A stretch of 64,000 nucleotides of DNA from Elusimicrobia bacterium GWA2_69_24 (lineage in GTDB: Bacteria > Elusimicrobiota > Elusimicrobia > UBA1565). The stretch lies in NCBI GenBank assembly GCA_001799695.1, contig MGTY01000130.1, positions 52,504-116,503 on the forward strand, written 5' to 3'. A model generated the notes under the pieces. That model had not been told where the DNA came from, did not search any database, and saw only the letters and a program-made list of their open reading frames with translations. The position numbers and the translations under genes were made by a program. Below, one piece after another: positions 3,001 to 41,856 of this stretch (position 1 is its first letter; the number at the start of each line of letters is the position of its first letter).

Positions 3001-4960
3001 CGTCCCCCGCGAAGTCCGCGGTGTAGGAATAGGTCCCGGAGGAGGCGGGGGAGTCGTAGGCCGCCGTGGCGACCCCCACGGCGTCGGTGACCGCGTCCTT
3101 GGTGAGCCCCTGGAAGGTGAAGCGGACCGTGCGCCCCTGGATGCCCGCCCCGTTGTGGAGGTCCGACAGCGTCACGGTGGCCCGGAAGACGTCCCCGATG
3201 TTGACGCCCGCGTCCCGCGCGAACATCACGCTGGTGTGGCTCTGCACGGTCACGGGCTGGGTGTCGCTCTGGAAAAGGAAGGAACCGTCCCCCGGGAAGG
3301 TCGCGGAGAAAGTGTACGGCCCGGTGGCGTTGGGGGCCGTGAAGCCCACCGTGGCGAGGCCCGTCCCCGAGGTGGCTCCCGACTGCTCCCCCCCATTAAA
3401 AAGGAAGGACACGGCCCGGCCCACGATGGGGTCCCCGGTGCCGCTGACGGTCAAGGTCGCGCTGGCCGTGAAGACGTCTCCCCAGCGCACGGTGACCGGC
3501 TGGCCCGAGAGCACGCTGAGCCGCGTGTCCACCGTCACCGTCCCCGAGCCCCAGGAAGCCGCGTAGGTCACCGCCCCGGCATAGTCGGACTGCAGGGGAT
3601 AGGTCCCGATGCCCCCGGGGGCGACGAAGGAGGCCGTGGCCACCCCGAGGGCGTCGGACACCGCGGCCTTGGTGGAGCCCGCGAACGAGAATACCAGGGT
3701 CTCGCCCGCGAGCGGGGCGCCGCCTTCGGCGGTCAAGGTGGCCGTGGCGGTGAACACGGTCGAGGCGTTGGCCCGGATGTCGGCCGGCATGGCGATGCTC
3801 GTGTTGCGCCGCACGGCCGTGACGGCGGCCGTGGCCTGACCGGTCGCGTAGGTGAAATCGCCGTCGTAGGATGCGGAATAGACGTAGGTCCCGGACGCCG
3901 TGGGCGCCGTGAACGCGGTCGCGACGATCCCGTCCCCGTCCGTCACCGAGGTCTGCGTAGAACCCTGGAACACGAAGCGGACGGTCCGGGCCCAGAGGGG
4001 GTCCCCGGTCAACTGGTCGGTGAGGGTGGCCTGGGCGTCGAACGCCATCCCCACGGTCGTGGAGACCGCCACGGTCTGGATGCGCACCGGGCGCATGGCG
4101 ATAGTGAGAGTGCCGGTCCCGCTCTTGGCCGAGAAGCCGGCGTTGCCGGAGAATTCCGCCAGATAGGTATGGGTGCCGCTCGAGGAGCCCGCGTTGAACA
4201 TCGTGGTCGCGACCCCGGCATCGTCGGTCACGCCGTCCTGGGAGGCCGCTTTGTAGGTGAAATGGATCGTCTCCCCGACCACCGGAGACCCGTCCGCGGA
4301 GGCGATCAGCGTCCCCTTAGCCTGGAAATCCTCCAGGAGGTAGGTCCCGACGTTCTGGGCGATGAGCAGGGTCGAGCGCTTGGTCACCGTGACCACCTTC
4401 GTGCTCTGGGACTGGCGGTAGGTGGCCCCTCCCGCATAGGAGGCGGTGTAGTTGTAGTTGCCGGCGTTGGTGGGGGCGGTGAAGGTGGATTCGGCCATGC
4501 CCAGCGCGTCGGTGAGCGCCGTGTTGCTCGACCCCTCGAAATAGAAGGTGATGAGCTTGCCGGGCATGTCCTCCAGGGTCTCCACGTCCACCAGGTTGAC
4601 CTGCATGGTCACCGTGCTGCCCGTGAACGCGGTGGTGTTCAAGGCGATGAGCACGGTGGAGCGCTGCTGCACGGTGACCGTGTTGTTGACCGAGGAGGCG
4701 TCGTAGTCCACGTTCCCCGCGAAGCTCGCGTCCAGGGTGTAGGACCCGCTGGTGGCGGGGGCGGCGTAGCTCACGGTCGCCACGCCCGAGGCGTTGGTCG
4801 CCGCGGTCTTGGTCTCCCCCCGGAAGACGAAGGACACCGTGGCCCCGGAGAGCGGCGCTCCCGTGGGGGAATAGGTCAGGGTGGCCTGGGCGTCGAAGGT
4901 CTTGGCCTGGCCCCCCGTCTCTCCCGTGGCCGGCGTCGTGACGGAAGGCAGGTTCAGGGT
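1..4960 (-). repeat. Tandem array of about 17 Ig-like modules (period about 255-300 nt, about 95 aa) inside the giant CDS
   Basis: Recurrent protein pattern A.ATLT...G.P..G..V.F.F.G.....TDA.GVAT..F.AP...GTY.Y.A.F.GD..Y....RRPT. Similar antisense pseudo-ORFs on the plus strand start at 198, 468, 768, 1041, 2514, 2769, 3066, 3609 and 3900 (MNEAVATP.., MKEAVATP..). Boundaries are approximate. Confidence 0.7.
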
Positions 4961-7591: not shown

Positions 7592-7989
7592 TGCATCCTG
7601 TGGCTCTTCTGCGCCTTCAACACGGCCGCGCGCGCCCGGGCCATGAGGATGGGCGGCGACACGGGCTTCAGGAGATAGTCGTCGGCGCCGAGGTCCAGAC
7701 CCTCGACTTTGCTCTCCGTCGACATCATCGTCCCCGTCAGCATGATGACGGGGATGAGCCTCAGGACGGGGTCCTGGCGGAGGGACTGCAGCACTTCGAA
7801 TCCGTTCGGGCTCAGCTCCCCGAGGTTGAAATCCAGGATGATGACGTCCGGCCGGCGGGCCTGGGCCTCCGCCACTCCCGCCTCCCCGCTGCTGGCCGAG
7901 AAGAACTCCCACTGCGGGTCGATCTCCACGATCTTCTTCATCACGCGGCTGAGATTCGCGTCGTCGTCGACCATCAGCATGCGATACAT
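7588..7989 (-). CDS. CheY-like single-domain response regulator (canonical receiver)
   Basis: MYRMLMVDDDANLSRVMKK...PDVIILDFNL...VIMLTG...DDYLLKP: acidic pocket DD, phospho-Asp, Thr and Lys are all present. Start moved to the internal ATG at 7989. Its stop overlaps the start of the giant CDS. Confidence 0.85.
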   Translation of the reverse strand: MYRMLMVDDDANLSRVMKKIVEIDPQWEFFSASSGEAGVAEAQARRPDVIILDFNLGELSPNGFEVLQSLRQDPVLRLIPVIMLTGTMMSTESKVEGLDLGADDYLLKPVSPPILMARARAAVLKAQKSHRMQ

Positions 7990-8079
7990 GGCACGGGCTC
8001 CTGGACTCCGCCTGCTACCAAGGAAAGTATAGGCCGCATTTCGCCTTCCCATTGTAAAGAAGTTGTAAAAAAACGCTGT

Positions 8080-8763
8080 TCAGCGCACGGTCGTCAGCTT
8101 GTAGCCGAGCGGCCGTACCGTATCGATCCGGCAAGACGAGGGAGAGAGTTTCCTGCGCAGATGCGACACGTGCATGTCGATGGAGCGCGTGCGGAACTGG
8201 TCATCCGTGTCCCACAGATACCGCAGCAGATAGCGCCGCGGCAGGGTCCGTCCGGCCTTCTGGATGAACAGGTGCAGGAGCTGATATTCCGTCCGCGTCA
8301 AGGTCTCTTCCCGGTCCCCGATCCGGATGCGGCGGTTCTCCGCGTCCAAGGAGATGTCCTGGAACACGAACTGCCCCCCGCCCCGCCCCAGGACGATCCG
8401 GCGCAGGATGGCGCGCACGCGGGCGCGCAGCTCCGCGTCGGGGATGGTGAGGGAGAGGAGCTCGTCGGTCCCCCGCTCGAAGGCGGCGAGGGTGGCCTGA
8501 TCGTCGAGCTCGGCGGCGATGGACACCACGAAGAGGGTGTTGAGGGTATCCGTCTTGCGGACGTGGTCCAGCAGCTCGTACTCGCGCCCATCGGCGGAGC
8601 CCAGCTCCAGGACCACCAGGTCGGGCCGCTCCCGGCGCCGCAGCACGGACTTCGCGGCCGGGACGCCGGGGGCGGTCCGGATGTCCGCCCCCAATTCCAG
8701 CAGCGCGCGCCGCAGCCGCTCCTGGAAGGGCCGCCGCCCGACCACGAGGATGCGCGGGCCCAT
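8080..8763 (-). CDS. OmpR/PhoB-family winged-helix response regulator with a degenerate receiver domain
   Basis: C-terminal Trans_reg_C-like region: LTRTEYQLLHLFIQKAGRTLPRRYLLRYLWD...SIDMHVSHLRRKL...IDTVRPLGYKL. Receiver positions are altered: ILVVGRRP (DD to GR), LVVLELG (Asp to Glu), DELLSLTIP (Lys to Leu). Confidence 0.85.
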   Translation of the reverse strand: MGPRILVVGRRPFQERLRRALLELGADIRTAPGVPAAKSVLRRRERPDLVVLELGSADGREYELLDHVRKTDTLNTLFVVSIAAELDDQATLAAFERGTDELLSLTIPDAELRARVRAILRRIVLGRGGGQFVFQDISLDAENRRIRIGDREETLTRTEYQLLHLFIQKAGRTLPRRYLLRYLWDTDDQFRTRSIDMHVSHLRRKLSPSSCRIDTVRPLGYKLTTVR

Positions 8764-8765
8764 TA

Positions 8766-9034
8766 GGGCCTGTCAACCAATAATATGAACATTTTGGAGG
8801 CTCGATATTGAGCGGATTCCTAGGCGCGAGGAGCGCGCATAGTGTGAACTATGCAAGCGACGAGCAACGACGAAATCAGCCGATAGCGAGCCTCCCCGAA
8901 GGGCCGGGGTGCTTTTGGGCTGCGCCTTTGCGCTGCTCGGCTTACATGCTCTACGAGCATGCGCGCCTCGCATCGCTTCGGCTCGCTCCAAAATCACCTC
9001 CGGCAAAATGCTCATATTATTGGTTGACAGGCCC
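8766..9034. mobile_element. MITE-like 269-bp palindromic element with 31-bp terminal inverted repeats
   Basis: 8766..8796 GGGCCTGTCAACCAATAATATGAACATTTTG is the reverse complement of 9004..9034 with 1 mismatch (position 8789). The inner halves are also imperfectly complementary (GCGAGGAGCGCGCAT vs GCGAGGCGCGCATGC). The ends are AT-rich in a 70% GC genome. It fills almost the whole 276-bp gap between the kinase stop (9040) and the regulator start (8763). Confidence 0.6.
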
Positions 9035-9039
9035 TTGCA

Positions 9040-10479
9040 TCAGGAGCTCTCGACCCGGGTGTTGGGAAGGGTGAAATGGAAGGTGCTGCCGCGGCTCGCG
9101 GTGCTCTCGGCCCAGATGCGGCCGTGATGCGCCTCCACGACCTCCTTGCAGAAGGCCAGCCCGATGCCGCTGCCGCGGATGCGCTCCCCCGGGGCCTTCT
9201 TGTCCGCGACCTGGAAGAAGCGGCCGAAGAGCTTCGGGAGCTGGTCCTCGGGGATGCCGATCCCGGTGTCGCGGATAGTCACGTGCACCGCGCCGGACTC
9301 CACCCCGGCGCCCAGGTGGATGCTCCCCCCCTCCGGCGTGAACTTGAGGGCGTTGAGCACGAGGTTGCCGATGACTTCGGAGACCAGGTTCCGGTCGCAG
9401 AAGGCCTCCACGGGGTCCGCGGGCATCTGCACGAAGAGGCGGACGCTCTTCTCCTCCACCACCCGCTCGAAGAGCTGCCGGGTCTCCTCGCACAGGGCCC
9501 CGACGTCCGTCTTCTCGAATTTGAAGTTCATGCGCCCGGCGCGGATCCGTTCCAGGTCCAGCAGGTTGTTGACGAACCGGGTGAGCTCCTTGACCCCCAG
9601 GTCGATGATGCGGATGTCCTCCTGGATCGTCTCCGGCACCTGGTGCGAGAGCTGATGCGCGTGATAGGCGGCGCCGGTGATCGCCGACAGGGGCGAACGC
9701 ATGTTGTGGGAGACGCTCTGCAGGAAGCGGTCCTTGAGTTCGTCGACCTCCTTGAGCTGGCGCGCCATGCGGTTGAGGTCCCCGGCCAGCGTCCCCAACT
9801 CGTCCTTGCGCTGCACGGGGATGTCCGCGTCGAACTTGCCCACGCCGATCTGCCGGGCGGCCTCGCTCAGGGCGCGGATGGGCCGGGTGAGGTTGGACGC
9901 GAAGAAGAAGGACACCAGGAGGCTCAAGGCCAGGCACACCCCTCCCACGGCGAAGAGCTCCTTGAGGGTGGCCTTGAGCGTCGCGGCCAGCTCCCGGTCG
10001 ATGACGCCCCGGTTGTAGCGCACCACCGTGGAGCCGAAGCGCTTGCCCTCGCTCCAGACCGGGACGGCCATCAGCAGGACCTTCTTGCCGTCCTGCACGA
10101 CCGGCTCCGCGCGGATGCCCTCCGCCCGGTTCGCCCGCTCCACGAACGGGTCCCGCTTGGGGGACACGACCTTCGAGTAGTCCTTCTTGAGGAAATCGGA
10201 GTGGATATGGACGCGCCCGTCCAGGTCCCAGAGGGCGACGTCCAGGACCTCATCCGACTTCATCCAGGAATCGAGGTAGGCGAGGAGGATGCGCTCCTCC
10301 CGGGCGTCCAGGGTGGACTCGCTGATGCGGGCCAGCTTCTCGAGGGCGCTGGTGCGCTCGTGCGCCATGCGCTCGGTCAGGTTGATCCGCTCGCGGATGT
10401 AGACCGCCGTCAGGGTGGCGCCGACCACGACCGACACCATGAGCATGGTCAGGAGGCTGAGGCGGGTGCGCAGGCTCAC
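9040..10479 (-). CDS. Sensor histidine kinase (TM, periplasmic sensor, TM, HAMP, HisKA, HATPase_c)
   Basis: H-box FLQSVSHNMRSPLSAI, N-box NLVLNALKFTPEGG, G-boxes IRDTGIGIPED and GSGIGLAFCKEVV, HAMP-like RPIRALSEAARQIG...DELGTLAGDLNRMARQL. Start set at GTG 10479 (VSLRTRLSLL..). The track start at 10536 is a TTG, so the start is uncertain. Confidence 0.85.
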   Translation of the reverse strand: MSLRTRLSLLTMLMVSVVVGATLTAVYIRERINLTERMAHERTSALEKLARISESTLDAREERILLAYLDSWMKSDEVLDVALWDLDGRVHIHSDFLKKDYSKVVSPKRDPFVERANRAEGIRAEPVVQDGKKVLLMAVPVWSEGKRFGSTVVRYNRGVIDRELAATLKATLKELFAVGGVCLALSLLVSFFFASNLTRPIRALSEAARQIGVGKFDADIPVQRKDELGTLAGDLNRMARQLKEVDELKDRFLQSVSHNMRSPLSAITGAAYHAHQLSHQVPETIQEDIRIIDLGVKELTRFVNNLLDLERIRAGRMNFKFEKTDVGALCEETRQLFERVVEEKSVRLFVQMPADPVEAFCDRNLVSEVIGNLVLNALKFTPEGGSIHLGAGVESGAVHVTIRDTGIGIPEDQLPKLFGRFFQVADKKAPGERIRGSGIGLAFCKEVVEAHHGRIWAESTASRGSTFHFTLPNTRVESS

Positions 10480-10544
10480 GCGAGAAGTATACCCGTCAGT
10501 GCGCCCTCTCGCCAGGGGTGCTTTTAGGTGATACAATTACCGGG

Positions 10545-11315
10545 ATGCTCAAGCGCGCCGCCCTTATCCTGCTGTCGGCCCTCCTGTCCGGCTGCTTCGG
10601 CAGCCAGACCTCGACCCTGGTCCAGCCTTCCCAGGAGCTGGAAGGGACCCGCCGTATCGCCGTGCTCCCCTTCCGGGCGCAATACGGGGACGGGCAGGCC
10701 ATGGGCGACGCCTTCGTCACGGAGTTCATGTCGGCCGGGTTCCTCGTTGTCGAACGCGGGCTGCTCGAAGGCGTCTTCCGCTCCCTCTCCCTCGATTTCG
10801 AAACCGGCGCCCTCCGCCCGGAGGAGCTGGTCAGCGTGGCCAAGTCGGCGAAGGTCGACGCGGTCATCTTCGGGACCCTCCAGGCGGAATCCGAGAAGGT
10901 CGGTGGGGACCTCCTCTCGGTCTCCCTGCGCATGGTGAGCGCGCAGAGCGGGGAGATCCTCCTGAGCTCCACCTACCGCAACGAGAAGCTTCTGCCGGCC
11001 AACCAGATCCCCGGCGCCATGATGAAGGACATCCAGAAACAGCTGGATTCCTATCACGCCAAGCTCGCCCAGGACCGGCGCCGGGCCGAGAAGGCGCGCA
11101 AGAAGGCGGAAGCCGCGGCGGCCAAGGCCAAGAAGGCCGAGGAAGCCCGGCTCAAGAAGGAAGCCGCCCGGGCGGCGGAAGCCGCCAGAGCCAAGAAGGC
11201 CGAGGAAGCCCGGCTCAAGAAGGCCGCGGAAGAAGCCGTCGAAGCGGCCAAGAAGGCGGGCGCCGCGCCGGAGACCCCGCCCCCCGCGCCCAAGGCCGGC
11301 AAGAAAGCCAAGTAG
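10545..11315 (+). CDS. Lipoprotein with an LpoB/CsgG-like N-terminal domain and a Lys/Ala/Glu-rich repeat tail
   Basis: Lipobox in MLKRAALILLSALLSGC. IAVLPFRAQYGDGQAMGDAFVTEFMSAGFLVVER...VDAVIFGTLQ resembles LpoB/CsgG-type lipoproteins. The tail is AKKAEEARLKK repeats. Start moved to the ATG at 10545. Confidence 0.7.
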   Translation: MLKRAALILLSALLSGCFGSQTSTLVQPSQELEGTRRIAVLPFRAQYGDGQAMGDAFVTEFMSAGFLVVERGLLEGVFRSLSLDFETGALRPEELVSVAKSAKVDAVIFGTLQAESEKVGGDLLSVSLRMVSAQSGEILLSSTYRNEKLLPANQIPGAMMKDIQKQLDSYHAKLAQDRRRAEKARKKAEAAAAKAKKAEEARLKKEAARAAEAARAKKAEEARLKKAAEEAVEAAKKAGAAPETPPPAPKAGKKAK

Positions 11316-13252
11316 TGCGCGCGGTAATCCTCTCCCTGGCGGCGTGCCTGGCCGTCGCTATCGCGGTCTATGCGAATTCCCTCCACAACCCCTTCGTGTT
11401 CGACGACGTGGGGGACATCGTCGACAACGCGGACATCCGGAAGCTCGACAACCTGCGCACGAAGCTCTTCGCCCCGTTCGGGGGCAAGGACACCCCGTAC
11501 TACCACCGCAACGACCCCTCCCGCGCCATCACCTACCTCACCTTCACCCTGAACTATCATTTCGGCGGGCTCGACCCGTTCGGCTACCACCTGTTCAACA
11601 TGCTCCTGCACGCTCTGTGCGCCTGCGGGGTCCTGCTGCTGGCCCGGCGCATCACCGTGCGGATACTGGGCTCCCCCTCCGTCTGGATCCCCCTCATGGC
11701 CGGGCTGTTCTTCGCGGCGCATCCCGTCAATACGGAGGCCGTGACCTACATCTACCACCGGTCGGAGGGCCTGGCCCTGCTCTTCTTCCTGGCCGCCTTC
11801 CTCACCTTCGACGCCTCGGTCGAGCGGAAGGGGGCCTGGCTGCCGATATCACTGGCCTGCTTCGCCTTGGCTTTGCTCTCCAAGCAGACCTCGGCCACGC
11901 TCCCCCCCATGCTCCTGCTCTACGATCTCACGGTCCTGAGCGACTGCCGCTGGGACGGGATCCGCTCGCGGCGCTGGCGCCATCTCGCCTACTGGGCCGT
12001 ACTCGCCGCCCACCTGGCCTTCTCCCGTTTCTATCTCGGCGGTCTAGCCGACCGCGAACTCGATGCTTTCGCCAAGTGGACCCGATTTTCCTATCTGTCC
12101 ATCCAGCCCTTCGTTCTCCTGCGCTATCTGCAGCTCCTGGTCTTCCCTTCCGGCCTCTGCATCGACCACGCGATCGACGTCCCGCGCTCCTGCCTCGAGT
12201 TCCGGGTCTGGGCCCCATTTGTGGCCGCAATGGCCTCACTTTCCTGGCTCCTGGCGGCCTTCCGGCGGCGCACCCCGGACGCCCGGCTCTGGGCCTTTTG
12301 CGCCTCCTGGATGCTGCTGGGATTGGCCCCCACCTCGAGCCTGATGCCGATACTCGACGCCATGGCCGACCGGCGGCTCTACCTGCCGGGATTCGGCTTC
12401 CATCTGGCCCTCGCCTTCGCCTATGTCCGGGTCTTCCGTCCCGAAGGCAAGGGCTCCTCCGGACGGCGCCGGATCATGATCGCCCTGGCGGGCGGCCACA
12501 TACTCGCCCTCGGTGTGGCCACTTTGGCCCGCAATAGGGTATACGCCGACACCGTCCTCATCTGGCAGGATGTCGTCGCCAGCTATCCGCGCAACCACCG
12601 GGCGCACAACAACCTGGCGAACGCCTACTACGACCGGGGCGACTTCGACCGCGCTCTAGAGCACTACCGAGCCGCCCTGGCCATCGATCCCTCCTACGCG
12701 GGCAGCTACACCAACCTGGGGAACATCTACCTGGCGCGGGGAGACGACTCCGCCGCCTTCGGCTGGTACCAGAAGGCCGTCGCGGTCAATCCCACGATCG
12801 CGGGGCTGCACGTGAACCTGGGCAACATCTATTATCGGCGGGGCGAGCCGGACCGCGCCCTGGCCGAATTCCGCCAAGCGGCCCGCCTCGACCCCAACTA
12901 CGCCGAGGCGCGCTACAGCATGGGGCTCGCCCTCGAGGCCAAGAAGGACCTGGCCGCGGCCCGGGCCGAGTACCAGGCCGCCCTGGACTTGAAAGCCGAC
13001 CTGCCGGACGCCCACAACAACCTGGGCCGGCTCCTATTCCTGGCCGGCCGGCATGCCGAGGCCGAGCAGGCCTACCGCCGCGCGCTGGCGCTCCAGCCGG
13101 TTAACGCGGGGGCCCACTACAACCTCGGCCTGCTCCTCGAGGCCCTGGGGCGGCGCGAGGCGGCCCTGGCCGAGTACCGGGAGACGCAGCGTCTGGAACC
13201 GGCCAACGCCTGGGCCGCGCGCCGCAGCGAAGCCCTCGGAGGGAAACATTGA
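11315..13252 (+). CDS. TMTC/PMT-like polytopic membrane protein with a C-terminal TPR array
   Basis: N-terminal motif YANSLHNPFVFDDVGDIVDN, typical of TMTC-like TPR membrane proteins. Multiple hydrophobic helices, then six or more TPRs (AHNNLANAYYDRGDFDRALEHYRAALAIDPSYA ...). The GTG start shares one base with the upstream TAG. Confidence 0.8.
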   Translation: MRAVILSLAACLAVAIAVYANSLHNPFVFDDVGDIVDNADIRKLDNLRTKLFAPFGGKDTPYYHRNDPSRAITYLTFTLNYHFGGLDPFGYHLFNMLLHALCACGVLLLARRITVRILGSPSVWIPLMAGLFFAAHPVNTEAVTYIYHRSEGLALLFFLAAFLTFDASVERKGAWLPISLACFALALLSKQTSATLPPMLLLYDLTVLSDCRWDGIRSRRWRHLAYWAVLAAHLAFSRFYLGGLADRELDAFAKWTRFSYLSIQPFVLLRYLQLLVFPSGLCIDHAIDVPRSCLEFRVWAPFVAAMASLSWLLAAFRRRTPDARLWAFCASWMLLGLAPTSSLMPILDAMADRRLYLPGFGFHLALAFAYVRVFRPEGKGSSGRRRIMIALAGGHILALGVATLARNRVYADTVLIWQDVVASYPRNHRAHNNLANAYYDRGDFDRALEHYRAALAIDPSYAGSYTNLGNIYLARGDDSAAFGWYQKAVAVNPTIAGLHVNLGNIYYRRGEPDRALAEFRQAARLDPNYAEARYSMGLALEAKKDLAAARAEYQAALDLKADLPDAHNNLGRLLFLAGRHAEAEQAYRRALALQPVNAGAHYNLGLLLEALGRREAALAEYRETQRLEPANAWAARRSEALGGKH

Positions 13253-13304: not shown

Positions 13305-14078
13305 ATGGACTTCATGACTTTGATCGGTCTGGTCGCCGGCCTGGCGATGTACTCCTGGGGGGTCTACGAGGGGGGCTCCGTCAAAGCCTTCCTCAACTCC
13401 CACGGCATCGGCCTCGTGGTCGGCGGCACCCTCTTCTCCACGATGATCATCTGCTCGGGCCGGGAATTCGTGGGCGCGATGCGCGCCGCCGTGGTCCTGA
13501 TCCTCTCCCCGCGCAACCTCGCACTCGACCCGGCCATAGACCTCCTGGCCGGGCTGGGCAAGAAGGCGCGGCAGAGCGGGATCGACTCCCTGGAGCCGGA
13601 CGCCCGCGGCGTGCGCGATGACGGCTTCTTCCTGCGCACCTACCACACCTGCCTGACCAGCCCGGATGAGATCATGGCCCGCAACGTCATCGAGCGCGAG
13701 ATCATACAGACCGGGATGCGCCATAAGGAGATGGGCAACGTGTTCAAGACCCTCGGGATGATCTCCCCCATGATGGGACTGATGGGGACCGTCATCGGCA
13801 TCGTCGGCGTGCTGCGCAACATCTCCGACCCCCAGATGGTCGGCGCCTCCATGGGCGTCGCCATGTCCACCGCTTTCTACGGGATCCTGCTCTCCGGCTT
13901 CATCTTCACCCCCCTAAGCGGCAAGCTCCGCCTGCGCAGCAACTCCGAGCTCCTGGTCAAGGAGACCATCATGGAGGGCCTGCTGGCGATCCGCTTCACC
14001 AACGCGCCCCCCAAGGTCCTGGAGCGCCAGCTCTTATCCTACCTGACCGCCCGCTCCATCGCCTCCCGGGGGAAATAG
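13305..14078 (+). CDS. motA: MotA/TolQ/ExbB-family proton channel, MotA/PomA-like stator subunit (257 aa)
   Basis: Four-TM layout. Conserved C-terminal channel region GMISPMMGLMGTVIGIVGVL...AMSTAFYGILLSGFIFTPLSGKLR. Followed 7 nt downstream by a MotB-like gene. Confidence 0.85.
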   Translation: MDFMTLIGLVAGLAMYSWGVYEGGSVKAFLNSHGIGLVVGGTLFSTMIICSGREFVGAMRAAVVLILSPRNLALDPAIDLLAGLGKKARQSGIDSLEPDARGVRDDGFFLRTYHTCLTSPDEIMARNVIEREIIQTGMRHKEMGNVFKTLGMISPMMGLMGTVIGIVGVLRNISDPQMVGASMGVAMSTAFYGILLSGFIFTPLSGKLRLRSNSELLVKETIMEGLLAIRFTNAPPKVLERQLLSYLTARSIASRGK

Positions 14079-14084: not shown

Positions 14085-14801
14085 ATGCTGGCCAAACACG
14101 GCGAAGAGGAAGGGGAGAGCGCGGTATGGGCCATCACCTACGGCGACCTCATGAGCTTCCTCATGATCTTCTTCCTGTTCCTATACGCCTTCGCGGTCCA
14201 GGACGACCAGAAGAAGCAGGAGTTGGCGGAGGTCATGCAGGAGACCCTGGGGGACAAGAAGGCCAAGGACCCCAAACCCCAGCTTCCCCTCGAGGTCCAG
14301 GCCGCCGAGGCCCTCAAGGACCGCTTCGAGGATTCCAAACTCACCGCCGTCGCGGAAGTCGAGACGGACAAGCTTTTCGTGAGGATCACCCTCAAGGAGA
14401 AGGTGCTCTTCAAGTCCGGCCGGGCGGAGCTGCTCCCCGAGGCCGCCGCCGTCATCCACCAGTTCGCCCTGGTGGGCAAGGGACTCGACAACGACATCAT
14501 GATCGAGGGCCACACCGACAACGTCCGGCCCGGGAAGCACCTGCCCTACAAGACCAACTGGGAGCTCTCCTTCGCGCGCGCCCACTCCATCGTGAAATAC
14601 CTCGTGGACCAGGAAGACTTCTCTCCGGCGCGCCTGGCCGCCGTGGGCTACGGAGAGTTCCGGCCCCTGGCCCCTAACGACTCCCCCGAGCAGCGGGCGC
14701 TGAACCGGCGCATCCAGATCACCATCATCCGCAAACCCGCCTGGGCCCCCGTGCCGCCCAAGCCCGCCCCCGCCCCGGCGCCGATCCCGGCGCACCACTG
14801 A
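14085..14801 (+). CDS. motB: MotB-like stator subunit with an OmpA-type peptidoglycan-binding domain
   Basis: N-terminal plug/TM with the invariant Asp: WAITYGDLMSFLMIFFLFLYAF. OmpA-like domain: IEGHTDNVRPG...NWELSFARAHSIVKYLV...ARLAAVGYGEFRPLAPNDSPEQRALNRRIQI. Confidence 0.85.
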   Translation: MLAKHGEEEGESAVWAITYGDLMSFLMIFFLFLYAFAVQDDQKKQELAEVMQETLGDKKAKDPKPQLPLEVQAAEALKDRFEDSKLTAVAEVETDKLFVRITLKEKVLFKSGRAELLPEAAAVIHQFALVGKGLDNDIMIEGHTDNVRPGKHLPYKTNWELSFARAHSIVKYLVDQEDFSPARLAAVGYGEFRPLAPNDSPEQRALNRRIQITIIRKPAWAPVPPKPAPAPAPIPAHH

Positions 14802-14814: not shown

Positions 14815-16254
14815 TCAATTAGCGACGGCTTGCGTCTGGAGCGATTCGGCCGCGGGAGCGCGCAGGGTGAGGAGCCCCGCGGTCTTGAGGCGTTCGACCA
14901 CGTCCACGATGCGGATGAACTCCTCGTCCGCGGCCTCCGGCGGGACCGGAGGCATGAAGCTGATCTGCTCGCGCAGGATGTCGGCGAACTCGGGGCTGAG
15001 GCGCTCGCAGACGCGGTCGGTGAGGCCGGGCGAACTGGCCTTGAGGAAGCGCGCGAAGGACTGCAGGCTGAGTTCGCGGAAGATGCGCAGGAAGGACCGG
15101 TCGTCGAAATCGAAGAGGTCCTCGAACTCCAGGAGGTTGTCCCGGAGATGCTGGGCCAACTCGGGGTCGGAGGCCTCCACCGCCGCGATGAGCGCGGAGC
15201 GGACGCCGGAATCGGTCCGCTGTATGATCTGGCACATCTTGCGCACGCCTCCGAAGCTGAAGCCCAGCTTGCGGCGGATCTGCTTCTCGATGAGCCGGAT
15301 GGACTCCGGGTTCCCGTACTTCACGCTGCGGCACTGCAGGAGGATGTCGCGGCGCTTCTCCGGGGTGAAGAGCGCGAAGGCCTTGGCCGCCACCGGCCGG
15401 GGCAGACACTCCAGCACGCTGGCGATGAGGAGTTCACCCTCCTTGGCCAGGGCCTGCGTCAGTCCGGAGATGTTGTCCTCGTTGATGAAGTCGAAAAGCG
15501 GTTCCTCGTCGGGGGACGTCGGCTTCATCCCCCCCGCCGGGCCCGCGGCAGCCGCCTCGCCCGCGCCGGCGGCCGGTCCGGCGCTGGCCGCGAACGCCGC
15601 CATCTCGGCCGCGGCCGGGGCCGCCTTCTTGGACAGCGCGTCCACCAGGTTGTCGAAAAAGCGCCGCAGGGGTCCGAAGAGGAAATAGGAGGCTATCAGG
15701 GCCGCGATGAGCAGCACCGCCGTGGCGGCCATCCCCACGTAGGCCATCAGGCTCTGCGGGGCGCTCTGGGTGCGGGCGCTGAAGGTCTTGATCTGGAGGG
15801 AATCCCCCTTGGCCGGGATGATCTCGAGGATCTGCGAGGCGACCTGCTTCACCTGCTCGGTCCGGGCCGGGTCCAGGGTCTTGCCGATCCAGATCGTGCA
15901 GGTGACGATCTTGCTGGCCCGGGCCACCCGCACCGGCGCGTCGGGCTTCTGGGTCAGGTTCTGGTTGACCGGGACCCCGGGCAGGACGTACTCCACGGCG
16001 GCCTTGCCGAAGCGCTCCTCCAGCTCCTTGCGCGTCTCCTCGAGGACCAGCGAGACGTTGACCACGGGGATGATCTCGGATATGCCCAGGTAGGCGGACA
16101 GGGCGTCCCGGAGGCGGTTCTCCAGGTTCCGCTCCAGGTCGGCCTGATGCACCTGTACCTCGGGGGAGAGCGAGGCCGCGCCGAACGACGCGCCGGCGAA
16201 GGCGCCGCCGAGGACTGCGGCCAGCAGAAGCGCGGAAATGGGCTTTGGTTTCAT
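14815..16254 (-). CDS. Membrane-anchored FliF(ring-building-motif)-like / TM / FliG middle plus C-terminal-like fusion protein
   Basis: Signal-like MKPKPISALLLAAVLGGAFAGASFG. Periplasmic segment LENRLRDALSAYLGISEIIPVVNVSLVLEE (FliF/YscJ-like). TM LMAYVGMAATAVLLIAALIASYFLF. FliG_M-like LIASVLECLPRPVAAKAFALFTPEKRRDILLQ. FliG_C-like FDFDDRSFLRIFRELSLQSFARFLKASSPGLTDRVCERLSPEFADILREQ...IVDVVERLKTAGLL. Confidence 0.7.
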   Translation of the reverse strand: MKPKPISALLLAAVLGGAFAGASFGAASLSPEVQVHQADLERNLENRLRDALSAYLGISEIIPVVNVSLVLEETRKELEERFGKAAVEYVLPGVPVNQNLTQKPDAPVRVARASKIVTCTIWIGKTLDPARTEQVKQVASQILEIIPAKGDSLQIKTFSARTQSAPQSLMAYVGMAATAVLLIAALIASYFLFGPLRRFFDNLVDALSKKAAPAAAEMAAFAASAGPAAGAGEAAAAGPAGGMKPTSPDEEPLFDFINEDNISGLTQALAKEGELLIASVLECLPRPVAAKAFALFTPEKRRDILLQCRSVKYGNPESIRLIEKQIRRKLGFSFGGVRKMCQIIQRTDSGVRSALIAAVEASDPELAQHLRDNLLEFEDLFDFDDRSFLRIFRELSLQSFARFLKASSPGLTDRVCERLSPEFADILREQISFMPPVPPEAADEEFIRIVDVVERLKTAGLLTLRAPAAESLQTQAVAN

Positions 16255-16345
16255 GCTCGGTGGTCCCGCCTAGATTATAGGTAAGTATGTGCGGCTCTTG
16301 TTGCCAAGATATTGACCGACCTGCGGCGGCTTCCTGTCGGCTTCC

Positions 16346-16374
16346 TTGAAAGGAAGGAGTCCTTCTGTTACAAT
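16346..16374 (+). promoter_or_regulatory. Possible sigma70-type promoter TTGAAA-N17-TACAAT giving a near-leaderless mRNA
   Basis: TTGAAA at 16346..16351, 17-nt spacer, TACAAT at 16369..16374. The ATG of the signal-peptide start (MPRNVFSAWSAAAALSLALAAPLAAQ) is at 16382, 8 nt after the -10 element. Confidence 0.35.
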
Positions 16375-16381
16375 CCAGAGT

Positions 16382-17332
16382 ATGCCTCGAAACGTCTTCT
16401 CAGCGTGGTCTGCGGCGGCCGCTCTGTCCTTGGCGCTGGCCGCGCCGCTCGCGGCGCAGCCCGCGCCGTCCCCTGAAGCGGCCCTCGCGGCGGCGCTCCA
16501 GGACCTGCGCAGCCCGGACCTGGCGGCCCGCCGGCAGGCGGTCAGCCAGCTCGGGGTCCTGCGCCGGCCCGAGTCCATACCCCCGCTCCGCGCCGCCCTG
16601 TCCGATGAGAGCCCCCTCGTCCGGACCGCGGTGCTGAACGTGCTGGGCCTCCTGCGGGCCGCGGAAGCCGCGCCGGACATGGCCCGCCTGGCGACCGCGG
16701 ATCCGGACGAGGTCGTGCGCCAGCAGGCGGCCGTCGCGCTGGGCTACGCCGGGGGCGCCGCCTCCGTCGACGCGCTCCTCTCCGCCCTCGACGACCCCGC
16801 GGCCGGGGTGCGCTCCGCCGCCGTCCGGTCTCTGGGCGCGCTCGCCTCGGACCGGGCCACGCCCAAGCTGAAAGCCCTGCTCTCCGACCCCGACCCGGGG
16901 GTACGGCGCGCGGCGGTGTCGTCTTTGGGCCGCGTCGCCTCCACTTCCGCGGTCTCGGGTCTGGGCGCGGCCCTGGCGGACCCGGACCCGGCCCTCCGCC
17001 TCGAGGCGGTCAAAGCCCTGGGCGCGGCGCGGTCGTCAGACGTCCGTGCCCTCCTGAAGCCCCTGCTCCAGGACCCCGACCCCTTCGTCCGCCTCAACGC
17101 GGTCTCGGCTCTCGGCCGGCGCGGGGACCGCTCCGGGGAGGCCGCCGCGATCGGGCTCCTCGGCAGCGCGGATCCGCAAGTCCGCCGACAGGCGGCCGAT
17201 TCCGTGTCGCTGGTGGGCTCCGCCGCCTCGGGACCGGGGGCCTTGCAGGCCGCCCTGGCCCGGGAGAAGGACCCGGAAGTGAAGGCCGCGCTCCAAGCCG
17301 CGTTCGAGCGGCTGCGCGCAAAGACCCGGTGA
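16382..17332 (+). CDS. Secreted HEAT-repeat (PBS-lyase-type) protein
   Basis: Signal peptide, then about 8 repeats of the type D.D..VR..A..ALG.....A...L...L.D (e.g. DPDPGVRRAAVSSLGRV, DPDPALRLEAVKALGAA, DPDPFVRLNAVSALGRR). Start moved to the ATG at 16382. Confidence 0.75.
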   Translation: MPRNVFSAWSAAAALSLALAAPLAAQPAPSPEAALAAALQDLRSPDLAARRQAVSQLGVLRRPESIPPLRAALSDESPLVRTAVLNVLGLLRAAEAAPDMARLATADPDEVVRQQAAVALGYAGGAASVDALLSALDDPAAGVRSAAVRSLGALASDRATPKLKALLSDPDPGVRRAAVSSLGRVASTSAVSGLGAALADPDPALRLEAVKALGAARSSDVRALLKPLLQDPDPFVRLNAVSALGRRGDRSGEAAAIGLLGSADPQVRRQAADSVSLVGSAASGPGALQAALAREKDPEVKAALQAAFERLRAKTR

Positions 17333-18441
17333 TGCTCCCCGGCGCCCTCCTGGGGGCGGCCGTCGCCGTATTCCTCCTTTGGCAGCTTGGGAAGTTCGGC
17401 TGGCGCCGCTACGCCGCCGCCCGCGAGGAAGTCTACCAGCCCATCATCCTCATGGCGATCGCCATGGAGATGATGCGCAGGCTCGGCCCGCCCTTCTCGG
17501 AGGGACGCCGGCTCGGGGACTGGACGATCGTGGAGGACGCGGTCGTCAAATGGAGCAAGGGCCTGCGGGGCTACGCGCGCAAGGCCTTCTGCGACATCTT
17601 CGAACAGAACGGTTTCGGCGAGTACGAAGCCCGGCGGCTCCACAGCCTGAGCCGCGGCGCCCGCGCAGAGGCCGCGCGCCGGCTGGGTCAGATGCTGGCG
17701 TTCAAGGCCGCGCCGGACCTGCTCCAAGCGCTCGAAGACCCCTGCGCGGAAGTGCGGCGCACGGCGTCCTGGGCCCTGGCCAACATGAGCCAGTGCGACG
17801 AAGCCCTCCGGCTCGCCACCACGGGCAAGCCCCGCATCTGCAAGGACGAGGACCTCGGCCGCAACGGCGCCGTCTCGGGCCGCTTCTATTGGGACGACGG
17901 CGAGCCGGTCATCGGCTGCGTCGGGGGCAACGTGCAGAGCATGGGCTCTTTGGGCAGCGAATCCCCGCGGGCGCCCTACGAGGATTCCGGCTACCGGCTC
18001 AACGGCGTCAGCGCCGGGGCCCCGGCCGCCCTGCGCGCCAAGCTTCGGCAGTTCGTGGGGGATTACAGCGTCGTGGTGTACCGCACCCGGGAGAATGTGC
18101 TCGTCCGTATGGGCTACATCACCGAGCACATCGATTTCGTCTTCCCGAAGTACCTGAGCCCGGACGACCGGATCTCCATCATGGGTAAGCTCGTGGTGCC
18201 CGCTCCCCCGAAAGAGGACCCCGCGCGCAACCGCATTCCCGAGGCCTGGGTCTCCATCCACTCCCGGGACGCCAGCTTCGGCATGGAGTACCGCTCCTGC
18301 GAAGCCGTCTCGTCCTACCGCCTGCACGACGTCCCGCCCGGCGACTATCACATCCGGGCCGCCTTCGGGGAATACTCCTACGAAGCGCCCCTGAAAGTCT
18401 CCCAGACCCAGCCGATGGTGCTCGACCTTACTTTGAAGTAG
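17329..18441 (+). CDS. N-terminally membrane-anchored protein with a HEAT-like segment and a C-terminal beta-sandwich-like domain
   Basis: TM ALLGAAVAVFLLWQLG. HEAT-like RAEAARRLGQMLAFKAAPDLLQALEDPCAEVRRTASWALANM. C-terminus YRLHDVPPGDYHIRAAFGEYSYEAPLKV resembles carboxypeptidase-regulatory-like folds. Its GTG/ATG start overlaps the upstream TGA. Confidence 0.7.
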   Translation: MMLPGALLGAAVAVFLLWQLGKFGWRRYAAAREEVYQPIILMAIAMEMMRRLGPPFSEGRRLGDWTIVEDAVVKWSKGLRGYARKAFCDIFEQNGFGEYEARRLHSLSRGARAEAARRLGQMLAFKAAPDLLQALEDPCAEVRRTASWALANMSQCDEALRLATTGKPRICKDEDLGRNGAVSGRFYWDDGEPVIGCVGGNVQSMGSLGSESPRAPYEDSGYRLNGVSAGAPAALRAKLRQFVGDYSVVVYRTRENVLVRMGYITEHIDFVFPKYLSPDDRISIMGKLVVPAPPKEDPARNRIPEAWVSIHSRDASFGMEYRSCEAVSSYRLHDVPPGDYHIRAAFGEYSYEAPLKVSQTQPMVLDLTLK

Positions 18442-19726: not shown

Positions 19727-19769
19727 GCCTACAAGTACGATCGACCCGCCGGAAAGTTCCCTGAATTGT

Positions 19770-19788
19770 GACTCTGTCTGGACAGAGT
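19770..19788. repeat. Palindromic repeat copy 2 (GACTCTGTCTGGACAGAGT)
   Basis: Same core as copies 1 and 3. Intergenic, between the HNH gene and the upstream hypothetical gene. Confidence 0.75.
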
Positions 19789-19887
19789 GCGGAGGCGAAG
19801 AGCACGCACCCAAAGAGATGGTCCAGATGTTATCGAACTGCCCCAAAGCGTTTGATGGTGTGCCAGCCAGGCGGGGCTACACTCAAT

Positions 19888-39965: not shown

Positions 39966-40187
39966 CACCGCTGAGAAACAGCTCTCAGCCTATTAACTTT
40001 AACAGGAATCCCTGGATTTTCAAGACCCAGAGAAGACCTGGACATCGGGGGCCTCATCGCCGCCGGAAGGGTCGATAACACACATGGCACGGTTCGCCTG
40101 GGAATGATAAAATGCGGCAAGGGAACTATTTTGATGCTCAATCGTATAAGAGGGGTCCCCCATGGTTCCGGCAAGGAGGAAAAAGCC

Positions 40188-41827: not shown

Positions 41828-41856
41828 TCGGGCATACGAACCTTCCCAGGCCTCCC

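Follow-up and report, generated by a model that had tools for sequence, protein, structure and literature searches.

A natural single-chain FliF-FliG protein encoded with a flagellar-type stator in Elusimicrobiota, a candidate rotor of a minimal non-flagellar motor

The canonical flagellar rotor is made of two chains, FliF and FliG, and works with stators of the MotA5B2 or PomA5B2 type. The RBM1 and RBM2 domains of canonical FliF surround the export gate, and the Gly-Gly (GG) linker and F-E-D hinge of FliG have roles in ring packing and torque transfer. A flagellar-type stator is at present taken as a diagnostic mark of flagellar motility (PMC12505986). Non-flagellar 5:2 motors, including GldLM/T9SS with SprB, AglRQS/Glt, ExbBD-TonB, TolQR-TolA and ZorAB, move surface adhesins or energise the envelope; they are built on Exb/Tol/Gld/Zor-type units and contain neither FliG nor FliF. 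An RBM3-type domain with an insertion between strands beta1 and beta2 is also found in SpoIIIAG, the static channel ring of Bacillus sporulation, which has no FliG part and no stator.

Single polypeptides that join FliF to FliG have been described. A natural fusion occurs in the Chlamydiaceae, bacteria without flagella (Bergeron, bioRxiv 10.1101/023564 / PMC4768692). The Chlamydia protein is approximately 330 residues long and contains RBM2, an unassigned RBM-like segment and, of FliG, a FliG_M-like region only, with no SpoIIIAG-like domain; it has been proposed to partner the type III secretion system instead of MotAB (PMC4768692). Spontaneous Salmonella and engineered Vibrio fusions have demonstrated that a covalent 1:1 chain assembles rings and, in Salmonella, a working motor (PMC11481574, PMC10941966). 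Free-living Elusimicrobiota have been reported to lack structural flagellar genes while retaining motAB, flbD and fliG, and the role of motAB in members such as DUR002 was called unclear (Uzun et al., bioRxiv 10.1101/2022.07.08.499144).

Here we describe a gene of Elusimicrobia bacterium GWA2_69_24 found in a 64-kb window, a term used below for the whole stretch of DNA that was analysed. Its product consists, in order, of a hydrophobic N-terminus, a periplasmic domain, a transmembrane (TM) helix, an Ala/Gly/Pro linker, FliG_M and FliG_C:

14815..16254, minus strand: single-chain FliF(RBM3)-TM-FliG(M+C) gene, 479 aa, ATG start (Pfam, full-length homologues, AF2 model)
16174..16254, minus strand: N-terminal hydrophobic segment, residues 1-27, sequence MKPKPISALLLAAVLGGAFAGASFGAAS
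15757..16173, minus strand: periplasmic RBM3-like (FliF S-ring / SpoIIIAG-like) domain, residues 28-166 (AF2 secondary structure, Foldseek, family profile)
15970..15984, minus strand: invariant LPGVP, residues 91-95, within an insertion of about 35 aa (alignments of relatives)
15667..15750, minus strand: TM helix, equivalent to FliF TM2, residues 169-196 (hydropathy; AF2 helix 168-193)
15505..15627, minus strand: disordered Ala/Gly/Pro linker, residues 210-250 (pLDDT below 50; length differs among homologues)
15220..15495, minus strand: FliG middle (ARM_M) domain with GG linker G335-G336, residues 254-345 (Pfam FliG_M; alignment to T. maritima FliG)
14866..15219, minus strand: FliG C-terminal domain with an L-L-E-F-E-D hinge (MFxF-type) and the torque helix, residues 346-463 (Pfam FliG_C; Foldseek)
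14956..15000, minus strand: torque helix LSPEFADILREQISF, residues 419-433 (alignments to Salmonella and T. maritima FliG)

The open reading frame was exactly as described in the original prediction, and the three peptides quoted there were located at residues 44-73, 276-305 and 381-430. As also described, the gene lies tail-to-tail with motB, which ends at 14801, the two stop codons being 13 bp apart. The frame is not mis-joined, since 12 full-length homologues from a first search and more than 130 cluster representatives from an exhaustive search all share its collinear architecture. Retention of this order of parts by at least 130 representatives, together with the GG linker and F-E-D hinge, suggests that selection acts on the whole chain.

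Two hydrophobic segments flank the periplasmic part, one on each side, as in FliF, which assembles into a ring of about 34 subunits. The first, which had been noted as signal-like, was seen at residues 1-27 and is present in most family members; it is predicted to act either as a Sec signal peptide or, like its FliF counterpart, as a TM1 that stays uncleaved. The expected single TM helix and flexible linker were recovered by hydropathy and AF2 at residues 169-196 and 210-250, respectively. The helix ends in a conserved FLFGP, of which F191, L192 and F193 are conserved, followed by RRFF in the positive-inside sense. The linker occupies the place of the FliF C-terminal peptide and FliG_N, and the suggestion that FliG_N is missing was borne out by Pfam, which found no match to it in the window protein, where residues 1-250 comprise the hydrophobic segment, periplasmic domain, TM helix and linker.

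Both of the FliG domains that had been proposed were detected above their Pfam gathering cut-offs, FliG_M (PF14841) with 29.7 bits against a cut-off of 25 (E 7.8e-7) and FliG_C (PF01706) with 68.6 bits against 23.3 (E 6.8e-19). The TIGR00207 fliG model gave E 9.7e-28, but its 97.5 bits fall below the equivalog cut-off of 226.7 and the alignment covers model positions 108-326 only. The protein also matched the T. maritima FliG of the PDB (E 1.1e-21). Consistent with these matches, Foldseek superposed the FliG_C part of the AF2 model on the FliG_C crystal structure 1qc7 (TMt 0.80-0.82, rmsd 2-3 A), and the same model matched FliF RBM3 structures.

Conservation within the FliG part was uneven. 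The two glycines of the GG linker are present in 133/135 and 128/135 family members and the F-E-D hinge in approximately 95/135. The EHPQR motif, which docks FliM, is degenerate in the window protein (E-G-E-L ... Q), and across the 135 members its H is found in none, its Q in 7 and its R in 10. The torque-helix charges proposed for examination were retained in part (E. coli numbering throughout): the equivalents of K264 and D288 are kept as K405 and E429, but E422 stands in place of R281, Q430 in place of D289 and Pro in place of R297. Family-wide, K or R occupies the K264 position in 106 of 135 members, E is found at 288 in 78 and at 289 in 97, and the R281 equivalent is lost, being Gly in 94.

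The periplasmic region had been read as a FliF/YscJ-like ring-building stretch of approximately 165 residues. A ring-building domain is indeed there, but it spans about 140 residues (28-166) and its motif is that of RBM3 (PF08345), not YscJ/RBM1-2 (PF01514). PF01514 was rejected as a model, with no match in the protein and none among the top families of 46 relatives, and PF08345 was adopted in its place. PF08345 was found in 32 of those 46 relatives (best E 5.1e-9), while the window protein alone gave no match to it at E <= 0.1. A profile of the family matched FliF chains in the PDB with E values of 1.9e-8 to 1.6e-5, covering both halves of RBM3, and SpoIIIAG with E 1.9e-4. These findings were paralleled at the level of fold: AF2 secondary structure reads alpha-beta-[insert]-beta-alpha-beta, the best Foldseek matches of the domain were to Salmonella FliF RBM3 (E 2.1e-4, TMq 0.56), and the SpoIIIAG fold matched as well. 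RBM3 homology is therefore visible at the family-profile and fold level, the N-terminal domain of the window protein itself being too diverged for a direct Pfam match. Profiles and model together indicate that the periplasmic domain is homologous to FliF RBM3, of SpoIIIAG-like type, and not to RBM1/2.

Between beta1 and beta2 of this domain, at the site of the FliF beta-collar, lies an insertion of approximately 35 residues (75-109). In Salmonella FliF, approximately 130 residues separate the two matched RBM3 halves (236-283 and roughly 418-455). The insertion has low pLDDT in the AF2 monomer model and carries LPGVP, which is invariant in alignments A1, A3 and A4 and conserved as PG[VILM]P in the large majority of 145 representatives.

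The genes facing the fusion gene encode a stator pair:

13305..14078, plus strand: motA/pomA-like stator A subunit of flagellar type, 257 aa (Pfam MotA_ExbB; NCBIfam PomA; PDB PomA)
14085..14801, plus strand: motB-like stator B subunit, 238 aa (Pfam MotB_plug E 1.7e-14 and OmpA E 7.5e-17; NCBIfam MotB/MotD/MotS)

MotA matched NCBIfam PomA over its full length (E 1.4e-44, below the equivalog cut-off) and PDB PomA (E 3.8e-34). It carries R89 and E97, equivalent to E. coli R90 and E98, and both conserved prolines (Pro173 and Pro222 equivalents), which are invariant in 12/12 cognate MotAs. MotB has a plug, a TM helix with Asp21 (in YGDLM) and an OmpA-type peptidoglycan-binding domain. Both subunits fall in the flagellar-type ('FIT', TGI4) class of PMC12505986, whose A subunits have four TM helices and an enlarged cytoplasmic torque-generating loop. 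A reading of the locus as Zorya (ZorAB) defence was rejected: PADLOC returned no ZorA match for MotA and none for the fusion protein, and MotB matched ZorB models only as a generic MotB homologue.

Gene contexts were obtained by 12 exact-protein look-ups. motA and motB adjoin the fusion gene in 12 of 13 independent loci, the usual order being fusion gene-motA-motB-motB2-TPR. The fusion gene is thus genetically locked to a flagellar-type MotA/MotB stator. Among 12 MotA/rotor pairs, which are not phylogenetically independent, an acidic residue at FliG 288/289 accompanied a basic residue at MotA 88/89 in 10, and both were absent in 2, so that the acidic torque-helix residue and the MotA Arg90 equivalent co-vary in 12/12 pairs. 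At the MotA partner of R281 (Glu98 equivalent, PomA position 96), 4/12 pairs show relaxation to Gln. In the window clade the R281 site is acidic (E422) and MotA retains E97, so that two charges of the same sign occupy the position of a salt bridge in flagellar motors.

Upstream of motA and beyond, the window holds genes for envelope and surface proteins and a two-component system:

10518..11315, plus strand: lipoprotein (lipobox LLSGC) with a weak FlgO-like domain (Pfam FlgO E 0.0022, below cut-off) and a Lys/Ala/Glu-rich tail
11315..13252, plus strand: 645-aa membrane protein with a PMT_2-type (GT-C-like) N-terminal part and C-terminal TPR (Pfam TPR families, weak PMT_2)
2..7591, minus strand: 5' part of a giant secreted protein gene, at least 2,530 codons, running off the window (open frame 8014..2; probable start 7591)
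8080..10536, minus strand: HAMP histidine kinase (9040..10536) and OmpR-type response regulator (8080..8763) (Pfam)

The FlgO-like lipoprotein gene is the first of the motAB operon, and its orthologues (46-49% identity) lie directly upstream of motA in loci L004 and L005. The PMT_2/TPR gene, which directly precedes motA here, has homologues in the vicinity of the fusion gene at L007 (E 7e-36, with 25% identity over 700 aa) and at L017. A TPR partner family, with PorV- or UPF0164-like barrels, was found at 10 of 13 loci and is missing from the clade of the window. Traces of the outer-membrane barrel comprised a PorV match in L013, weak UPF0164 matches in L008 and L011 and a faint CHU_C match in L007; the window itself gave no PorV, UPF0164 or CHU_C match, and GldL/M of type IX secretion were not seen.

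The giant protein has a signal peptide, DUF2341, 11 Big_3_5 domains and Invasin_D3 (Pfam), its C-terminus lying outside the window. Giant proteins encoded next to the fusion gene at L001 and L007 share 34% identity with it over approximately 1,600 aa. Giant secreted proteins occur within 10 kb of the fusion gene in 5 of 13 loci, and three are mutually homologous. In the window this link is looser than in L001, L007 and L009, since the giant gene is 6.8 kb away and lies behind the two-component system. The giant protein is a likely accessory or cargo of the fusion/MotAB system. The kinase and regulator genes lie upstream of the gene for it and diverge from the motAB operon.

Two further candidates were set aside. 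The 1,670-aa plus-strand frame at 2666..7678 is an antisense artefact of the giant gene, since it has no Pfam match and is 54% Arg/Gly/Pro/Ala. The HEAT-repeat genes at 16346..18441, divergent from the fusion gene, were left out of the system because no related locus contains homologues of them.

At least 130 clusters at 50% identity carry the same fusion architecture. They belong to Elusimicrobiota (Elusimicrobia) and one clade in Nitrospirae, taxon names being those of NCBI-labelled matches only. A pattern scan with alignment A1 returned only two genome loci and one short metagenome locus, and a profile search via a word index with a diverse alignment added almost no further family members. 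Searches of the literature on FliG-like and MotAB non-flagellar systems, DUF2341 and Elusimicrobia found no description of the architecture apart from the gene-content remark and the Chlamydia precedent cited above. The combination of RBM3, FliG_M and FliG_C thus appears to be undescribed.

No other flagellar structural genes were found among the plausible open reading frames scanned over the 64-kb window or in the flanks of the 13 loci; fliM/N, flhA/B, fliPQR and rod, hook and flagellin genes were all missing from both. The only gene annotated as flagellar in the flanks was the small flbD, present at some loci. On the basis of these 64 kb and one preprint (Uzun et al.), the source organism probably has no canonical flagellum.

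Compared with the canonical rotor and its stator, the family shares the RBM3/S-ring domain, TM helix, ARM_M, GG linker and MFxF-type hinge, a six-helix FliG_C with its torque helix, a PomA-like MotA and a MotB with plug, Asp and OmpA domain. It differs in being one chain rather than two, in lacking RBM1/RBM2, the FliF C-terminal peptide and FliG_N, in having an LPGVP collar of about 35 aa instead of a beta-collar of about 130 aa, in the loss of the EHPQR FliM site, R281 and R297, and in the absence of export apparatus, rod, hook and filament genes nearby. The fusion protein therefore lacks all FliF and FliG parts for the export gate (RBM1/2), the rod (collar), FliF-FliG docking (FliG_N) and switching (EHPQR).

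The proposal that the membrane-ring and stator-facing elements are a single chain was supported by the domain matches; the idea has precedents in the Chlamydiaceae and in laboratory Salmonella and Vibrio fusions. Both the family and the Chlamydiaceae protein run from a signal sequence/TM through a shortened RBM region in the periplasm and a TM helix to a FliG-like part in the cytoplasm; judged by the description in PMC4768692, the family makes the opposite choice of domains, RBM3 with FliG_M and FliG_C, and it is stator-linked. The laboratory fusions (e.g. PDB 8z4d/8z4g) join full-length FliF to (nearly) full-length FliG, 945 aa in 8z4d, within a complete flagellum and are products of the laboratory, whereas the present family is natural and reduced. 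SpoIIIAG has in common with it the RBM3-type domain with its beta1-beta2 insertion. The non-flagellar 5:2 motors resemble the present loci in encoding an ion-driven stator-like unit with TPR, PorV-like barrel and giant surface proteins, but here the stator is of flagellar type and the receiver is a FliG torque domain.

Collectively, the architecture, whole-chain conservation, stator link, contact covariation, non-flagellar context and output-side neighbours lead us to regard it as probable, though well short of certain, that the product of the fusion gene is the rotor subunit of a minimal rotary motor, ion-driven and non-flagellar. The like charges at E422/E97, the diverged N-terminal domain, the Nitrospirae clade, the absence of the conserved partner from the window clade and the looser link of the giant gene there count against this reading. 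By homology, the RBM3 domains would assemble a ring in the inner membrane, and FliG_MC, in 1:1 ratio, would form a ring directly beneath the bilayer. Fixed to peptidoglycan through the MotB OmpA domain, MotA5B2 units would conduct ions through Asp21 and turn against the FliG-like torque helix via a contact between MotA R89 and E429, and the ring would rotate, probably in one direction only. More speculatively, the short collar with LPGVP could pass this motion to envelope partners, which in most lineages may be a TPR domain, in many cases joined to a PorV-like barrel of the outer membrane, and in the window clade the FlgO-like lipoprotein and PMT_2/TPR protein. The process served might involve the giant secreted Ig-repeat proteins, by moving, exporting or tensioning an adhesin for surface motility or attachment.

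A broader claim is put forward only tentatively: that these genes represent a previously unrecognised class of stand-alone, MotAB-driven motor with a single-chain ring, without type III export, rod or filament, in Elusimicrobiota, Nitrospirae and probably other phyla, which powers an envelope-spanning process of TPR/PorV-like and giant Ig-repeat proteins, for instance the handling of adhesins or a new kind of movement over surfaces.

An energy transducer without continuous rotation is a less likely alternative, in which MotAB force would be converted to a conformational change in envelope partners, as for TonB/TolA with ExbBD/TolQR, and a large ring may not be needed. The tight linkage of the stator genes with TPR, PorV-like barrel and OmpA-type proteins recalls such trans-envelope systems; two MotB paralogues are common at fusion loci, one often without the channel Asp, and the DUF2341 of the neighbouring giant protein is otherwise seen fused to ExbB/TolQ-type proteins (PMC12505986). 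However, the periplasmic domain has specifically the ring-building RBM3 fold of FliF and SpoIIIAG, the GG linker and F-E-D hinge of FliG are conserved, and the stator belongs with the flagellar torque generators and not with Exb/Tol units.

It is improbable that the locus is a regulatory or sensory module, in which a FliG decoy parks MotAB or reports proton-motive force or mechanical load to the kinase-regulator pair. Such a pair lies by the cluster in the window and L005, where a kinase orthologue (55% identity) holds the same position, and follows the fusion gene in L003; the only partial conservation of the torque-helix charges would also fit a decoy. Two-component genes are nevertheless missing from most loci, while motAB and TPR genes are nearly universal, and a decoy gives no reason for a conserved ring-building domain with an invariant LPGVP loop. 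Further, no canonical motor from which stators could be parked is encoded in the loci or reported for free-living Elusimicrobiota.

We consider it similarly improbable that the protein belongs to an unusual true flagellum, as a natural FliF-FliG forming the MS-ring and the top of the C-ring with the remaining genes elsewhere in the genome. Every recognisable domain of the chain is flagellar, the stator is of the PomA/MotB-plug type, flbD occurs at some loci, one clade lies in Nitrospirae, a phylum that includes flagellated members, and engineered or spontaneous fusions are reported to build working flagella or rings. Against this stand the absence of RBM1/RBM2, the reduction of the beta-collar from about 130 to about 35 aa, the loss of the FliM-binding EHPQR and the lack of other structural flagellar genes in the window, at the 13 loci and, as reported, in free-living Elusimicrobiota. 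That the gene is a decaying, functionless remnant of a lost flagellum, as reported flagellar loss in these lineages and the degeneracy of several motifs might suggest, is scarcely credible given an intact frame, more than 130 diverged clusters that keep architecture, invariant motifs and synteny over at least two phyla, and residues that co-vary with the cognate MotA.

If the minimal-rotor reading is true, these loci are a natural case of a rotor-stator core apart from the flagellar secretion core, with a bearing on the evolution of the flagellar motor; because the torque module exists here without the secretion module, the family also bears on the modular origin of the flagellum. It would serve as a natural experiment in which parts kept for rotor-stator interaction alone (RBM3, ARM_M, GG linker, hinge, acidic side of the torque helix, 1:1 stoichiometry) are separated from those that are dispensable (RBM1/2, collar, FliG_N, FliM site, R281, R297). 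The family also offers the orphan motAB genes of Elusimicrobiota a concrete partner and a testable model. Should the ring rotate, uncultivated groundwater bacteria would have a new ion-driven machine with a link to giant surface proteins, and its compact rotor (479 aa plus MotAB) would be an appealing subject for structural and single-molecule studies.

In a search for evidence of expression, the fusion-gene sequence was present only in DNA runs from groundwater metagenomes. A consensus promoter scan upstream of the gene did not call the following element, which lies 20 nt before the start codon and was found by inspecting the sequence:

16274..16279, minus strand: perfect TATAAT hexamer, promoter-like, with no good -35

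The proposed single-chain protein was confirmed, and its interpretation is supported with three refinements, concerning its periplasmic domain, its torque helix and its precedents. The fusion gene and its motB neighbour are convergent, the tail-to-tail arrangement originally described, with 13 bp between the end of motB and the fusion gene stop codon. The ATG of the fusion gene is preceded, at 20 nt, by a perfect TATAAT hexamer.

13305-14078, forward strand: motA
14085-14801, forward strand: motB
14815-16254, reverse strand: fusion gene, an open reading frame of 479 aa with an ATG start

The layout of the fusion protein was drawn from hydropathy and from an AlphaFold2 model built on 13 homologues, and the peptides quoted in the original prediction were located at residues 44-73, 276-305 and 381-430. 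In the model, a short helix lies between the transmembrane region and the linker.

Residues 1-27: hydrophobic N-terminus (hydropathy, AlphaFold2)
Residues 28-166: periplasmic alpha/beta domain (hydropathy, AlphaFold2)
Residues 169-196: transmembrane helix, then RRFF (hydropathy, AlphaFold2)
Residues 210-250: disordered Ala/Gly/Pro linker (AlphaFold2)
Residues 254-463: all-helical region of high model confidence (AlphaFold2)

The FliG part of the fusion protein is genuine. As predicted, both the middle and C-terminal domains of FliG were detected above the Pfam gathering scores (FliG_M, E 7.8e-7; FliG_C, E 6.8e-19), and FliG_N had no Pfam match. The fliG model TIGR00207 was matched at E 9.7e-28 over model positions 108-326 only, far under its equivalog cut-off. 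The closest solved relatives were Thermotoga maritima FliG middle-plus-C fragments (E 1.1e-21) and Salmonella FliG (E 4e-19), and the AlphaFold2 C-terminal domain superimposed on FliG_C crystal structures with TMt of 0.80-0.82 and an rmsd of 2-3 A. Kept and lost FliG residues were tallied over 135 family members. The two glycines of the Gly-Gly linker are kept in 133 and 128 members, the F-E-D of the MFxF hinge in about 95, and a Lys or Arg at the K264 equivalent in 106; Glu supplies the acid at the D288 and D289 equivalents in 78 and 97 members, respectively. R297 is lost across the family, as is R281 (Gly in 94 members, Arg in 2), and the FliM-binding motif EHPQR has lost its His, Gln and Arg. 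The torque-helix charges, whose conservation had been raised as a check, are half kept in the protein from the window: K405 and E429 stand, whereas R281 is replaced by E422, and Q430 and a Pro occupy the other equivalents.

The periplasmic part of the fusion protein is the third ring-building motif (RBM3) of FliF, not RBM1 or RBM2. Its modeled order is helix, strand, a low-confidence insertion of about 35 aa, strand, helix and strand. When the model of residues 28-166 was searched against the PDB with Foldseek, the top matches were to the RBM3/collar region of Salmonella FliF (best E 2.1e-4, probability 1.0, TMq 0.56), with SpoIIIAG lower in the list. A family profile built from 28 diverse N-terminal regions was run against every sequence in the PDB; its significant matches were chains of FliF (E 1.9e-8 to 1.6e-5) and SpoIIIAG (E 1.9e-4), and no others. 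On Salmonella FliF, this profile covered both RBM3 halves, 236-283 and about 418-455, which flank the beta-collar. PF08345 (Flagellar M-ring protein C-terminal) was matched by 32 of 46 diverse relatives (best E 5.1e-9), PF01514 was not among the leading Pfam families for these 46, and the protein from the window, too diverged, had no direct match to PF08345. The ring-building domain originally proposed is thus present, but it is RBM3 (PF08345) rather than the PF01514 domain. A short insertion stands in place of the long FliF beta-collar; its motif L91-P-G-V-P95 was invariant in all alignments made and was seen in the large majority of 145 representatives.

The fusion protein belongs to a large family and is neither a one-off nor a mis-join. 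A word-indexed search recovered 12 full-length homologues of 24-52% identity, the named ones being from Elusimicrobia or Elusimicrobiota, and when 1.84 billion cluster representatives were searched exhaustively with a profile, 271 proteins passed E <= 1e-30. Nearly all of the best 150 matched the profile over its full length and measured 450-700 aa; among them, 131 begin with a hydrophobic N-terminus and continue in the same order with PG[VILM]P (about residue 80-125), a transmembrane helix (about 160-230) and FliG_MC, so the N-terminal part is not a mis-joined separate reading frame. These proteins fall into about a dozen clades, one with extra C-terminal TPR repeats and one that includes a protein from a Nitrospirae MAG. 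The sequence from the window was also found in groundwater metagenomes.

The genomic contexts of 13 distinct family members were compared, and motA and motB lay beside the fusion gene in 12. The commonest gene order was fusion gene, motA, motB, motB2 and TPR gene, with flbD ahead of motA in the TPR-fused clade. The stator of the window is of the flagellar type: MotA is PomA-like (NCBIfam PomA, E 1.4e-44; PDB PomA, E 3.8e-34), with both mechanistic prolines and with R89 and E97 in the places of E. coli R90 and E98, and MotB has the plug, Asp21 and the OmpA domain. In 10 of 12 cognate pairs, an acidic residue at FliG 288/289 is matched by a basic one at MotA 88/89 (PomA numbering; E. coli R90), and in the remaining two both are absent. 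In 4 of the 12, the equivalent of MotA Glu98 (PomA position 96) has relaxed to Gln; its partner in flagellar motors is R281, which is lost here. These pairs, few and not phylogenetically independent, fit a retained MotA-Arg/FliG-acid contact. Seven loci (L001, L009, L012, L013, L015, L016 and L018) have two tandem MotB paralogues after motA. In five of the seven, one copy has N, T, A or G in place of the channel Asp, which points to a heteromeric pair of B subunits. Only one MotB, with Asp21, is encoded in the window.

Collectively, these analyses demonstrate the domain composition of the fusion protein, its conservation, and its linkage to and covariation with MotAB. The protein is clearly built from both FliF and FliG, yet it differs from FliG proper in falling under the TIGR00207 cut-off, in lacking FliG_N and EHPQR and in being membrane-bound, and from FliF proper in lacking RBM1/2, the long collar and the FliG-binding tail. 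The single-chain idea holds, with precedents both natural and from the laboratory. One natural FliF-FliG fusion is known from Chlamydiaceae (bioRxiv 10.1101/023564 / PMC4768692); compared by description, it makes the opposite domain choice, with RBM2, an RBM-like segment, FliG_M only and no stator. The spontaneous Salmonella and engineered Vibrio fusions join full-length FliF and FliG, unlike the reduced protein described here. No description of the RBM3-TM-FliG_MC family or of its gene neighbourhood was found in the searchable literature.

The fusion protein is best classed as a reduced single-chain rotor of the flagellar type, coupled to MotAB in a setting other than a flagellum. From established knowledge of FliF, FliG and MotAB, the RBM3 domains would form a ring, and the fused FliG_MC units a 1:1 ring under the membrane. 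Peptidoglycan-anchored MotA5B2 units would make the ring rotate by turning against the torque helix at its acidic face, probably without switching, since there is no FliM site. A non-rotary force transducer of the TonB/TolA kind is an unlikely alternative. The non-flagellar 5:2 motors (GldLM, AglRQS, ExbBD, TolQR and ZorAB) use other stator classes and no FliG, and PADLOC made no Zorya assignment. A regulatory or sensory module that binds the stator is improbable, and an odd but genuine flagellar part slightly more so. The flagellar-type stator class is regarded as flagellum-specific in a recent survey (PMC12505986). Genes for the export apparatus, C-ring (FliM/N), rod, hook and filament were absent from the plausible reading frames of the 64-kb window and from the called genes of the 13 loci; from this local context and a preprint on Elusimicrobiota gene content (Uzun et al., bioRxiv 10.1101/2022.07.08.499144), the fusion gene is not part of a recognisable flagellum. 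That preprint reports that free-living Elusimicrobiota are devoid of structural flagellar genes but retain motAB, flbD and fliG. A functionless relic is scarcely credible. There is a substantial chance that the family, read as such a rotor, marks a new envelope machine.

A conserved partner gene, encoding a TPR domain of about 200 aa, adjoins the core in 10 of the 13 loci. In five loci this domain is joined to a PorV/UPF0164-related barrel of about 300 aa; the resulting conserved protein, about 540-625 aa long, is encoded immediately upstream of the fusion gene.

L001, 8023-9900
L007, 8185-9975
L009, 8120-9964
L011, 8305-9933
L013, 1853-3475

The N-terminal part of this protein resembles PorV/UPF0164 outer-membrane barrels, and its C-terminal TPR domain has, in other loci, a gene of its own after motB2. 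The clade of the window lacks the TPR/barrel partner and instead has a lipoprotein with a weak FlgO-like domain, kept upstream of motA in L004 and L005. Also encoded in the window is a PMT_2+TPR membrane protein; L007 and L017 have relatives of it close to the fusion gene. Speculatively, the LPGVP mini-collar may couple the ring to TPR, outer-membrane or lipoprotein partners.

In 5 of the 13 loci, giant secreted proteins are encoded no more than 10 kb from the fusion gene.

7591-2, reverse strand (open frame 2-8014): giant secreted protein gene, probable start 7591, at least 2,530 codons, running past the left end of the window

This protein has a signal peptide, DUF2341, eleven Big_3_5 domains, Invasin_D3 and MG4, and shares 34% identity, across about 1,600 aa, with the giants beside the fusion gene in L001 and L007. 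Speculatively, the rotor might serve such surface proteins, for instance in moving, exporting or tensioning an adhesin. A "1670-aa" reading frame over the giant gene (2666-7678, forward strand) was rejected as an antisense artefact. In distant relatives, the called genes adjoining the fusion gene encode proteins of 9,263 (L007, 1-7775), 14,454 (L009, 1-7823) and 5,243 residues (L015, 19261-21500), among the largest in bacteria. The giant gene of the window is separated from the motAB operon by genes for a HAMP histidine kinase and an OmpR-type regulator. L005 has a conserved copy of this kinase, and in L003 the fusion gene is followed by a kinase-regulator pair.

The remaining features of the window are as follows.

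16346-18441, forward strand: two HEAT-repeat proteins, divergent from the fusion gene and not conserved in related loci
18683-19846, reverse strand: 387-aa reading frame with a weak C-terminal HNH endonuclease match
34892-36559, forward strand: type II/IV secretion ATPase (T2SSE) with an N-terminal response-regulator receiver domain
36828-38129 and 38126-39769, reverse strand: two TPR proteins, after the ATPase and on the opposite strand to it
40104-41108: D12-class N6-adenine DNA methyltransferase
46363-47556, reverse strand: CdaA-type diadenylate cyclase (DAC domain and CdaA_N)

One HEAT-repeat protein has a signal peptide; the other has an N-terminal transmembrane segment and a CarboxypepD_reg-like C-terminus. 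The HNH-type frame lies in a stretch of lowered GC (0.60-0.63), between the cluster and a xanthine-dehydrogenase-type operon (20999-24654). The methyltransferase falls in a low-GC island at about 40000-42000 (GC 0.53 versus about 0.68), which also holds an unannotated 247-aa reading frame and may be a horizontally acquired restriction-modification unit. Given the diadenylate cyclase, the organism probably uses c-di-AMP signalling.
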